From Candidatus Yonathbacteria bacterium (GTDB taxonomy: Bacteria > Patescibacteriota > Minisyncoccia > Phycocordibacterales > JACNGX01), in the NCBI GenBank assembly GCA_013334825.1, contig JAAXWR010000001.1, positions 139,769 to 203,768 on the forward strand: a stretch of DNA of 64,000 bases, read 5' to 3'. The notes below the pieces were generated by a model, which was not told the DNA's origin, did not search any database, and worked only from the letters and a program-made list of their open reading frames with translations. Of the stretch, positions 19,688-20,584 are shown in pieces. The first letter of the stretch is position 1. Each line of letters opens with the position of its first letter. The position numbers and the translations under genes were made by a program.

Positions 19688-20584
19688 ATGGCAAATCGAC
19701 ATCTCTGCAGAAGTATCGTCATGCAATCCCTCTTCGAGTGGGATTTTGGTGGTTGTACTGCCGACCTCGAAGAAATCGTCAAGCGTAATGCCGCGGAGTT
19801 TGCTCCCGGTATTCCCGATACTGACTTTATGGTAACGCTTGCGCAAGGTATTGCAGACAAGCGTGCCAAGATTGACGAAGTGATTGTTGCCGCCGCTCCT
19901 GAATGGCCGATTGAGAAAATTGCGGTCCTTAACCGCACTATTTTGCGAATTGGATTGTTCGAACTTCTTTTTGGTGATAGAAAGGAAGTCCCACCAAAAG
20001 TTGCTATCAATGAAGCCATCGAACTTGCGAAATCTTTTGGTGGAGATTCTGGGAGTCGCTTTGTGAATGGTGTACTTGGTGCTGTGTATCGCGAAATGGG
20101 CGAGCCAGGCAAGGATCAAACAAGCAAAAAGAAAGAGCCGATTGATATTACTAAACTTCCCATCGATCGTCTCATTGGAGCTGTTGTATATACTAAGACA
20201 GGGAACGGTGTTAAACTCGCTCTTCTCCGTGACGTTTTTGGTAAATGGACGCTTACCAAAGGACATCTCAAAGATGAGGAAACAGATACAGATGGTGTTG
20301 TACGCAAAGCACTTGATGAAATGGGTGCTGTTATCATCGAAGTCAAAGACCTTCTGGGTGAGAATGAATACCTTGCGAATACAGAAGATGGTGGTAAGTT
20401 GCGCAAACAGGTACGCTATTTCCTCGCGGAAGCAAAAGATGGTGATCTTCGTCCCGGTGAATCTGGAGGTATTGCGGATGCAAAATGGTTTACTCTTCCT
20501 GAAGTGATTGACCTTACTATGTATGACGATATTCTTCCAATTGTTACAAAGGGTGTAAATATTCTCCTTGGTAAATCGTCGTAG
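19688..20584 (+). CDS. nusB: NusB antitermination factor fused to a C-terminal NUDIX hydrolase domain
   Basis: N-terminal half has [15 protein letters not shown] and [27 protein letters not shown] (NusB). C-terminal half has [32 protein letters not shown] (Nudix box Gx5Ex7R[KE]xxEExG) and the rest of the Nudix fold. Confidence 0.8.
   Translation: [298 protein letters not shown]

Follow-up and report, generated by a model that had tools for sequence, protein, structure and literature searches.

In a 64,000-nucleotide stretch of the genome of a Candidatus Yonathbacteria bacterium (contig JAAXWR010000001.1, positions 139,769 to 203,768 of the forward strand; this whole stretch is called the window below), the gene for the transcription factor NusB continues in frame into a Nudix-fold domain. 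NusB is the BoxA-RNA-binding subunit, and the partner of NusE/S10, in the Nus antitermination and rRNA-maturation complex; few bacterial transcription factors are better conserved, and its architecture is regarded as invariant. An initial annotation, made from the letters of the window, had called the fusion unusual. This is right relative to model bacteria and wrong for its own lineage: sequence comparisons indicate that the fusion is the normal form of NusB in Paceibacteria/Parcubacteria of the candidate phyla radiation (CPR), a large group of ultra-small bacteria. Across the family the canonical catalytic glutamates of the Nudix box vary, while the residues of the putative nucleotide pocket are invariant. 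Tentatively, and with somewhat less than even confidence, we regard the Nudix domain on NusB as a tethered binding module for a nucleoside polyphosphate or an RNA 5' end, and as a slow hydrolase at most.

The fusion gene occupies 19688..20584 on the + strand, encodes 298 amino acids and ends with TAG at 20582-20584. A single + strand open reading frame (ORF), 19652..20584, spans it. Because the family consensus N-terminus is MANRHLSRS, the start is placed at the ATG at 19688, in agreement with the initial annotation. All peptides quoted there are recovered in the translation, G192 opens the Nudix box at the nucleotide that had been given (20261), and the 298 codons run from one half to the other without a stop or frameshift. 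The Pfam comparison that had been recommended for the two halves places both NusB and NUDIX above cut-off.

The NusB domain (residues 1-139, 19688..20104, +) is all-helical and includes the C-terminal BoxA-binding helix with F125. Pfam PF01029 covers residues 8-135 (E=7.9e-28, 97.9 bits, cut-off 23.1) and the NCBIfam equivalog TIGR01951 (nusB) covers residues 4-136 (115.1 bits, cut-off 88.35). This half aligns over its full length with the NusB proteins of M. tuberculosis, T. maritima and E. coli (1e-15 to 1e-17), and Foldseek against the PDB matches it to T. maritima NusB (1tzv, TM 0.85, root-mean-square deviation 1.8 Å) and M. tuberculosis NusB (1eyv, TM 0.82). Models of RsmB also match it, at 6.5e-12 and 45 bits, far under their cut-offs of 269-540. 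E. coli NusB has almost the same FVNGVL-containing motif, and the NusE-interface aromatic residue Y18 of the E. coli protein is conserved as F16. The protein differs from E. coli NusB in having N82 at the place of E81, a position usually occupied by Asp or Glu, which reads U8 of BoxA. By alignment, F125 corresponds to E. coli F122, and it is invariant in 44/44 family members. The Aquifex structure of NusB with NusE and BoxA places the BoxA site along the C-terminal helix α7, where F122 stacks on U8 (PMC3177189). The NusB half is thus a genuine NusB and looks fully functional. None of the solved NusB proteins (E. coli, M. tuberculosis, T. maritima, A. aeolicus) carries a C-terminal extension of about 160 amino acids made up of a linker and a Nudix domain.

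The C-terminal half (residues 159-298, 20162..20581, +) is a Nudix-fold domain of the Ap4A/ApnA-hydrolase type. The Nudix fold proposed by the initial annotation is confidently supported by Pfam, by an AlphaFold2 (AF2) model and by Foldseek. Pfam PF00293 (NUDIX) matches residues 167-274 with E values of 1e-11 to 4.8e-11 (43.3-45.4 bits, cut-off 21.1). Hundreds of Nudix structures in the PDB are matched by Foldseek, the best being the Aquifex Ap4A hydrolase 3i7u (TM 0.86-0.87), together with Chlamydia CT771, mycobacterial MutT1/Rv2985, Thermus Ndx1 (an Ap6A hydrolase), human NUDT2 and the Ap4A hydrolase of C. elegans. A profile of the Nudix half searched against the PDB gives a similar picture, with 3i7u at 7.6e-20, CT771 at 1.9e-12, Ndx1 at 4e-12, NUDT2 at 8.5e-11 and 1kt9 at 1.2e-10, followed by the Dcp2 decapping enzymes as the next-best family (~6e-8). 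In the same search, Bdellovibrio RppH (3ees/3ffu) is reached at 3e-5 and in the box region alone, and the 60 best PDB matches listed do not include E. coli RppH. The NCBIfam model of RppH gives no match for the window protein. Membership in the RppH family was considered and rejected, the match to bona fide RppH being marginal. From the order of the relatives by both sequence and fold, the domain descends from the dinucleoside-polyphosphate hydrolase branch and not from NudC or classical RppH. The Nudix regulators NrtR (3gz8) and AraR (5bs6) are also found among the structural and sequence matches.

The AF2 model, built from 44 family members, consists of two well-defined domains, with a mean predicted local distance difference test score (pLDDT) of 86. 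The N-terminal domain has seven helices (residues 4-137, pLDDT ~90), and the C-terminal domain is an alpha/beta/alpha sandwich (residues 159-293). A Lys-rich flexible linker (residues 140-158, 20105..20161, +) with a net charge of +2 joins the two, and its pLDDT is below 50 at residues 140-151. Throughout the family the linker is 21-27 amino acids long, and Lys is its commonest residue. Because the predicted TM-score (pTM) is only 0.48 and the linker pLDDT is below 50, a fixed packing of the two domains is not predicted. The position of the BoxA site on the C-terminal helix means, in turn, that the tether and the Nudix domain hang directly off the RNA-binding helix.

The initial annotation had suggested that relatives be searched for the same fusion, and the architecture proves to be widespread. 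A 100% identical protein (P0001) is deposited in NCBI as 'transcription antitermination factor NusB [Candidatus Yonathbacteria bacterium]', and the identical NusB-Nudix protein is found on independent contigs. The best 120 matches (at least 55% identity; NCBI, JGI, ENA and Logan assemblies) all possess both Pfam domains. When one genome per GTDB species is scanned, at least 423 species encode a relative, and the best 80 of these are full-length fusions from Yonath-, Campbell-, Wolfe-, Zambryski-, Kaiser- and Nomurabacteria and further Paceibacterota/Parcubacteria. When only the Nudix half is used as query, an exhaustive HMMER search reaches fusions down to ~27% identity, 53 of the top 150 cluster representatives being fusions. 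With a distant fusion as query, 7762 clusters are found at E<=1e-20, and the 120 listed are all of fusion length (251-335 amino acids). The junction GEPGK is invariant in the family. This recurrence across species and clusters, together with the conserved junction, shows that the fusion is not an assembly artefact.

One locus, L085, at first sight contains two genes, a NusB of 133 amino acids and a Nudix protein of 141 amino acids between rpmF and rnc. This split was rejected on reading the DNA: a single in-frame TAA (L085 941..943) stands at the conserved Tyr134 codon, and the linker is still in frame. The TAA is a nonsense mutation or a sequencing error and not a two-gene state. The L085 copy has a strongly degenerate box, RSVKEKLG, and it lies on a contig of the highly fragmented assembly GCA_013565675.1, which may be contamination within a eukaryote project. 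The other short, seemingly stand-alone matches nearest to the query are mostly fragments on contigs shorter than 1 kb. An occurrence outside CPR was also considered for locus L081, whose protein P0220 (MDI9325490.1) is labelled 'Alphaproteobacteria bacterium'. The label is treated as unreliable because the contig has the CPR-like compact context L32-NusB::Nudix-RNase III-SMC, and it is probably a binning or taxonomy error. A further fusion protein, P0344, is labelled 'Candidatus Gracilibacteria bacterium' in NCBI. Two longer proteins were encountered: P0245 (1219 amino acids, on a 4-kb Logan contig) has NusB at 929-1060 and Nudix at 1066-1184, at its C-terminus, and P0201 (577 amino acids) has a Nudix match by phmmer at residues 420-552, near its C-terminus, with a NusB match that is just a short fragment. 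Both may be fusions of larger size, or else read-throughs in gene calling. No description of the NusB-Nudix architecture was found in the literature, in a search not covering all journals. As far as searched, the spread of the fusion through the lineage, the constancy of its operon and the trend from enzyme to binding module have no earlier description, and both domains, as well as the proteins deposited as NusB, are known.

The Nudix box of the window protein (G192-A214, 20261..20329, +) reads G-x5-E-x7-R-K-A-L-D-E-M-G-A against the consensus Gx5Ex7REUxEExGU. The spacing and the residues G, E198, R206, E211 and G213 are retained, and K207 and D210 replace Glu; the box is therefore non-canonical, with RK and DE in place of RE and EE, as the initial annotation had noticed. 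K207 (codon AAA, 20306..20308, +) stands at the metal-ligand Glu of the 'RE' pair. In a profile alignment to NUDT2, residues E58, E61 and E62 of that enzyme correspond to K207, D210 and E211, so that the full set of glutamates is absent. In the Ap4A-hydrolase/RppH-type site, the Glu of 'RE' ligates two metal ions, the first Glu of 'EE' is the inferred base and the last Glu ligates M1/M2 (PMC5526541). The NUDT2 mutant E58A serves as an inactive control on triphosphorylated RNA (PPP-RNA) (PMC8616924). In other respects the domain resembles the NUDT2-type ApnA hydrolases (Aquifex aq_158 3I7U, CT771, Ndx1, NUDT2 and the C. elegans enzyme), with which it shares a WTxPKGH-type start of the box, the conserved Tyr/Lys strands and a C-terminal aromatic residue. 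These enzymes, however, stand alone and have the canonical REx2EE, whereas the window protein is fused to NusB and has Lys for the Glu of RE and Asp for the first Glu of EE.

The variability of the box extends over the whole family. Position 207 is K76/E39/V3/I2 in the 120 close relatives, one third of which have the canonical REx2EE, E9/V9/K7/I7/A4/T1 in 37 diverse full-length fusion representatives and E108/K92/V42/I18/A13/R8 in 285 fusions. Seven of the 37 diverse representatives keep all four acidic residues of the box, and six are without even the last Glu, whereas 46/56 stand-alone relatives from the same search have Glu at the equivalent position. All four acidic residues are present in 30% of the 285 fusions as against 80% of 45 stand-alone relatives (Fisher p ~4e-10, kinship ignored). 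The caution of the initial annotation about catalytic status was apt. Residue changes were counted by Fitch parsimony on a rough tree made by the unweighted pair group method with arithmetic mean (UPGMA). Position 207 has undergone at least 33 switches between acidic and non-acidic residues and ranks 83rd of 138 Nudix columns in conservation. Position 210 has undergone at least 23 such switches, and position 211 just 6 changes. In one subclade (P0286-P0298, from several sources and contigs) the box is a conserved, non-canonical KSH...[RK]VxxKEFG motif; these proteins are mostly missed by Pfam NUDIX, yet the domain is full-length and possesses all pocket-type residues.

The pocket-type residues behave quite differently. 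W187, K191, Y228, K240, Y244, W267 and Y279 are each at least 99% conserved in the 285 fusions, with 0-1 changes into or out of their residue class for all of them except K240, which has 3. In the profile alignment these invariant positions are the columns conserved in solved ApnA hydrolases. The last box Glu (97%) and R206 (94%) are likewise conserved in the fusions. Overall, the Nudix half is nearly as well conserved as the NusB half: mean pairwise identity is 0.61 for the Nudix half and 0.70 for the NusB half in the close set, and 0.33 and 0.40 in the diverse set. At the level of sequence, these data show that the Nudix domain as a whole is under purifying selection, that the pocket is invariant and that the canonical glutamates, except the last, are free to vary.

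Because the box glutamates are variable while the pocket-type residues are invariant, we infer that selection keeps binding and not turnover, which is the basis of the reading given at the outset. In the window protein, whose box state is E-K-D-E, hydrolysis is expected to be weak or absent, with residual activity possible. One candidate ligand would be the 5' end, (p)ppN or Np4N-capped, of the nascent transcript on which BoxA itself lies, and the other a free ApnA-type nucleotide. A PPP-RNA 5' end is a candidate because NUDT2-type enzymes accept PPP-RNA (PMC8616924). The Nudix domain would be kept within about 20 residues of the BoxA site, where it could stabilise or regulate the assembly of the antitermination/rRNA-processing complex, and its action might be co-ordinated with that of RNase III, the product of the neighbouring gene. 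In this it would be comparable to SuhB, an enzyme-fold accessory subunit in E. coli. The conserved adjacency of RNase III is consistent with a role in this complex. The initial annotation had linked the fusion to removal of RNA 5' ends or NAD caps by an active enzyme. This is not supported in that form: the domain belongs to the Ap4A/ApnA branch and not to NudC or classical RppH, and its metal-ligand and base glutamates are unconserved while the pocket is conserved. A 5'-end link as recognition, not necessarily removal, is possible. A bolder version of the proposed binding function is that the domain is a dedicated reader in the CPR rRNA antitermination complex, which senses a 5'-triphosphate, an Np4N cap or an ApnA stress nucleotide, couples that status to Nus-dependent rRNA transcription and RNase III processing and replaces SuhB-type factors, the transition from enzyme to sensor being caught at many intermediate stages. 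In this full form the proposal is speculative and on balance unlikely.

Several observations weigh against a binding module at the BoxA site. The AF2 model predicts no inter-domain contact (pTM 0.48), and the fused Nudix domain is acidic, with a net charge of -5, which disfavours binding of an extended RNA backbone. No BoxA-like element or rRNA gene is at hand to tie the protein to rRNA leaders, as judged from the following counts. With the E. coli consensus and up to 2 mismatches, the window contains 9 BoxA-like matches where 6.9 are expected. In the upstream regions of the 80 loci there is one match, and no conserved 7-mer beyond A-rich runs. Rfam at gathering score finds no family in the whole 64 kb (no tRNA, rRNA, riboswitch or leader). 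The assignment of a pocket depends on homology columns, and the switch counts depend on a rough tree. The fully canonical box is kept by those 30% of the fusions, and the close clade keeps E198 (E/D 100%), E210 (E/D 97%), E211 (100%) and D264 (97%). Moreover, the catalytic base and the number of metals vary among Nudix enzymes (PMC5526541). The acidic conservation in the close clade fits retained Mg-polyphosphate binding, and may possibly reflect catalysis by a reduced-metal or Lys-assisted mechanism.

These acidic residues, and the canonical REx2EE in a third of the close clade, also favour the main alternative, in which the domain is an active RppH/NUDT2-like pyrophosphohydrolase or Np4N-decapping enzyme. 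Delivered by NusB to BoxA transcripts, it would convert 5'-PPP or capped ends to 5'-P and thereby license 5'-end-dependent processing alongside RNase III. Its nearest relatives are indeed ApnA hydrolases, NUDT2 of that branch converts PPP-RNA to P-RNA (PMC8616924), the Dcp2 decapping family comes next in the PDB (~6e-8), the tether places the domain beside the BoxA-binding helix and the gene shares an operon with RNase III. However, the window protein has Lys at the very site where E58A abolishes the activity of NUDT2, similarity to RppH is marginal (the Bdellovibrio match at 3e-5 covers the box alone), and the domain is acidic. The glutamates have switched at least 33 and 23 times across the fusions and a whole subclade has KSH/RVxxKE, and activity can therefore not be the conserved function of the whole family. 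On these grounds an active tethered enzyme seems somewhat unlikely. RppH itself offers a likeness in that the window domain, too, is a Nudix domain that might encounter RNA 5' ends, and NUDT2, a close structural relative of the window domain, acts on PPP-RNA (PMC8616924); the window domain differs in being only marginally similar to RppH and in having no equivalent of NUDT2 E58.

An eroded catalytic motif and an acidic surface would also suit a pure protein-protein scaffold, a ligand-independent subunit that contacts, for example, S10, NusA, NusG or RNA polymerase. A precedent for such a subunit is SuhB, a protein of inositol-monophosphatase fold which in E. coli contacts the rrn leader and without which NusB/E is not stably integrated (PMC6614801). 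Against a scaffold, the invariant residues (WTxxKG, Y228, K240, Y244, W267 and Y279) are columns of nucleotide-binding ApnA hydrolases and are accompanied by the last box Glu and R206, a pattern of invariance that fits a conserved ligand pocket better than it fits a newly acquired protein interface. We consider the scaffold improbable. SuhB may still be a functional analogue of the Nudix domain, as an enzyme-fold accessory subunit of the antitermination complex; the proposed likeness is one of analogy only. SuhB is a polypeptide of its own that forms dimers, and the two folds are unrelated.

Reduced genomes often contain gene fusions, inter-domain contact is not predicted and the stand-alone relatives are ordinary small Nudix proteins, all of which would agree with a functionally uncoupled fusion. 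The Nudix half would then be a housekeeping hydrolase, sanitising Ap4A or nucleoside triphosphates and acting on free nucleotides, that is merely co-translated with NusB. A housekeeping hydrolase should, however, keep its box as the stand-alone relatives do (80%, compared with 30% in the fusions). In addition, the fusion, the length of the linker and the operon position are kept down to 26% identity in the Nudix half, and the sole apparent split, in L085, is an in-frame nonsense codon. An uncoupled fusion is thus quite improbable. An assembly or frameshift artefact joining two genes can be dismissed, given an identical protein on independent contigs, hundreds of species and thousands of clusters with the fusion and an invariant GEPGK junction.

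Both features of the proposed binding module, a NusB-type domain joined to an enzyme-type domain and a Nudix domain with an eroded active site, have counterparts in known systems. RsmB/Sun is the 16S rRNA m5C967 methyltransferase with an N-terminal NusB-like domain. It has in common with the fusion an RNA-binding module of NusB fold upstream of an enzyme-type domain and a place in rRNA biogenesis. There, however, the partner is an S-adenosylmethionine-dependent methyltransferase and the N-terminal domain is NusB-like, whereas here the partner is Nudix and the NusB half is a true NusB at the equivalog level. NrtR and Bacteroides AraR resemble the fusion in having a Nudix domain as a module that binds a nucleotide or sugar nucleotide, with eroded catalytic glutamates and a regulatory partner, and the NUDT9-H domain of TRPM2 is a further Nudix domain turned ligand sensor. 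The three differ from the fusion in that their domains come from ADP-ribose pyrophosphatase-type Nudix enzymes and their partners are DNA-binding or channel domains, whereas the domain on NusB derives from an ApnA hydrolase and has an RNA-binding transcription factor as its partner.

A major lineage of ultra-small, uncultivated bacteria thus has a NusB whose RNA-binding helix bears an extra domain of nucleotide-binding type, and whose gene shares an operon with that of RNase III. CPR organisms are otherwise without many classical regulators. If RNA 5' ends or ApnA nucleotides are indeed what the domain reads, this would constitute a new regulatory input to rRNA synthesis and maturation. On a single scaffold the family also displays boxes that range naturally from canonical through intermediate to fully degenerate, a series useful for studying how an enzyme evolves into a binding module. 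Public databases annotate the fusion only as 'NusB', and annotation pipelines should flag the second domain. The fused gene is, moreover, the NusB marker in the phylogenomics of these genomes.

The order of the genes around the fusion is conserved. Among the 80 loci, same-strand rpmF upstream and rnc downstream are found in 79/80, with gaps mostly below 200 nt, and rnhB lies further upstream in 66/80. In L081, whose fusion is 26-28% identical in the Nudix half, the order L32-NusB::Nudix-RNase III-SMC is retained, and rpmF and rnc likewise flank the fusion gene in L085. In the window, the conserved upstream neighbour rpmF (ribosomal protein L32) is at 19289..19615 (+; Pfam PF01783, 1e-17) and the conserved downstream neighbour rnc (RNase III) is at 20664..21380 (+; Pfam Ribonuclease_3 and dsrm). 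The frequent first gene of the unit, rnhB (RNase HII), is at 18449..19117 (+; Pfam PF01351, 3.5e-34). Upstream of rnhB there is a promoter-like TTGACA-16-AATATT (18277-18304), a consensus match alone. A hairpin search found a strong, terminator-like, bidirectional hairpin after rnc (21485..21511), with an 11-bp stem, AAAAACGCCAC...GTGGCGTTTTT, and no credible + strand terminator between rnhB and rnc in the window. No second NusB or Nudix was found within the 64-kb window, which has a GC content of 44% and is otherwise compact housekeeping, including rpoBC, rpoD, dnaG, dnaE, gyrB, pheST, thrS, RNase R, smc and suf genes.

Some neighbouring genes have features of their own. The L32 of the window has 108 amino acids, with the domain at residues 6-55 followed by a Lys/Ala-rich tail of about 50 amino acids, and extended L32 proteins of 85-89 amino acids with Lys-rich tails occur in related loci (L085 280..537, L081 7667..7936). 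Between rnc and smc lies an orphan ORF of 222 amino acids (21639..22307, -) with no Pfam match and a very acidic C-terminus, DGDGHDDDDLPF; it is flanked by the terminator-like hairpin after rnc (21485-21511) and another at 21608-21632. In the distant locus L081, unlike the window, rnc and smc are adjacent. The phenylalanyl-tRNA synthetase beta chain (4377..6737, +, 786 amino acids) contains an NlpC/P60 domain (PF00877, E=9e-19, residues 356-464) between its B3_4 and B5 domains, an unusual insertion for PheT. The ORF for ribosomal protein S16 (29941..30444, +) has 167 amino acids, with the domain at residues 38-95, and thus has either extensions at both ends or a mis-set start. A second orphan ORF, of 170 amino acids (17621..18133, -), has no Pfam match and possesses two CxxC pairs (CPTCGG...CNGCGG), which are suggestive of a zinc ribbon.

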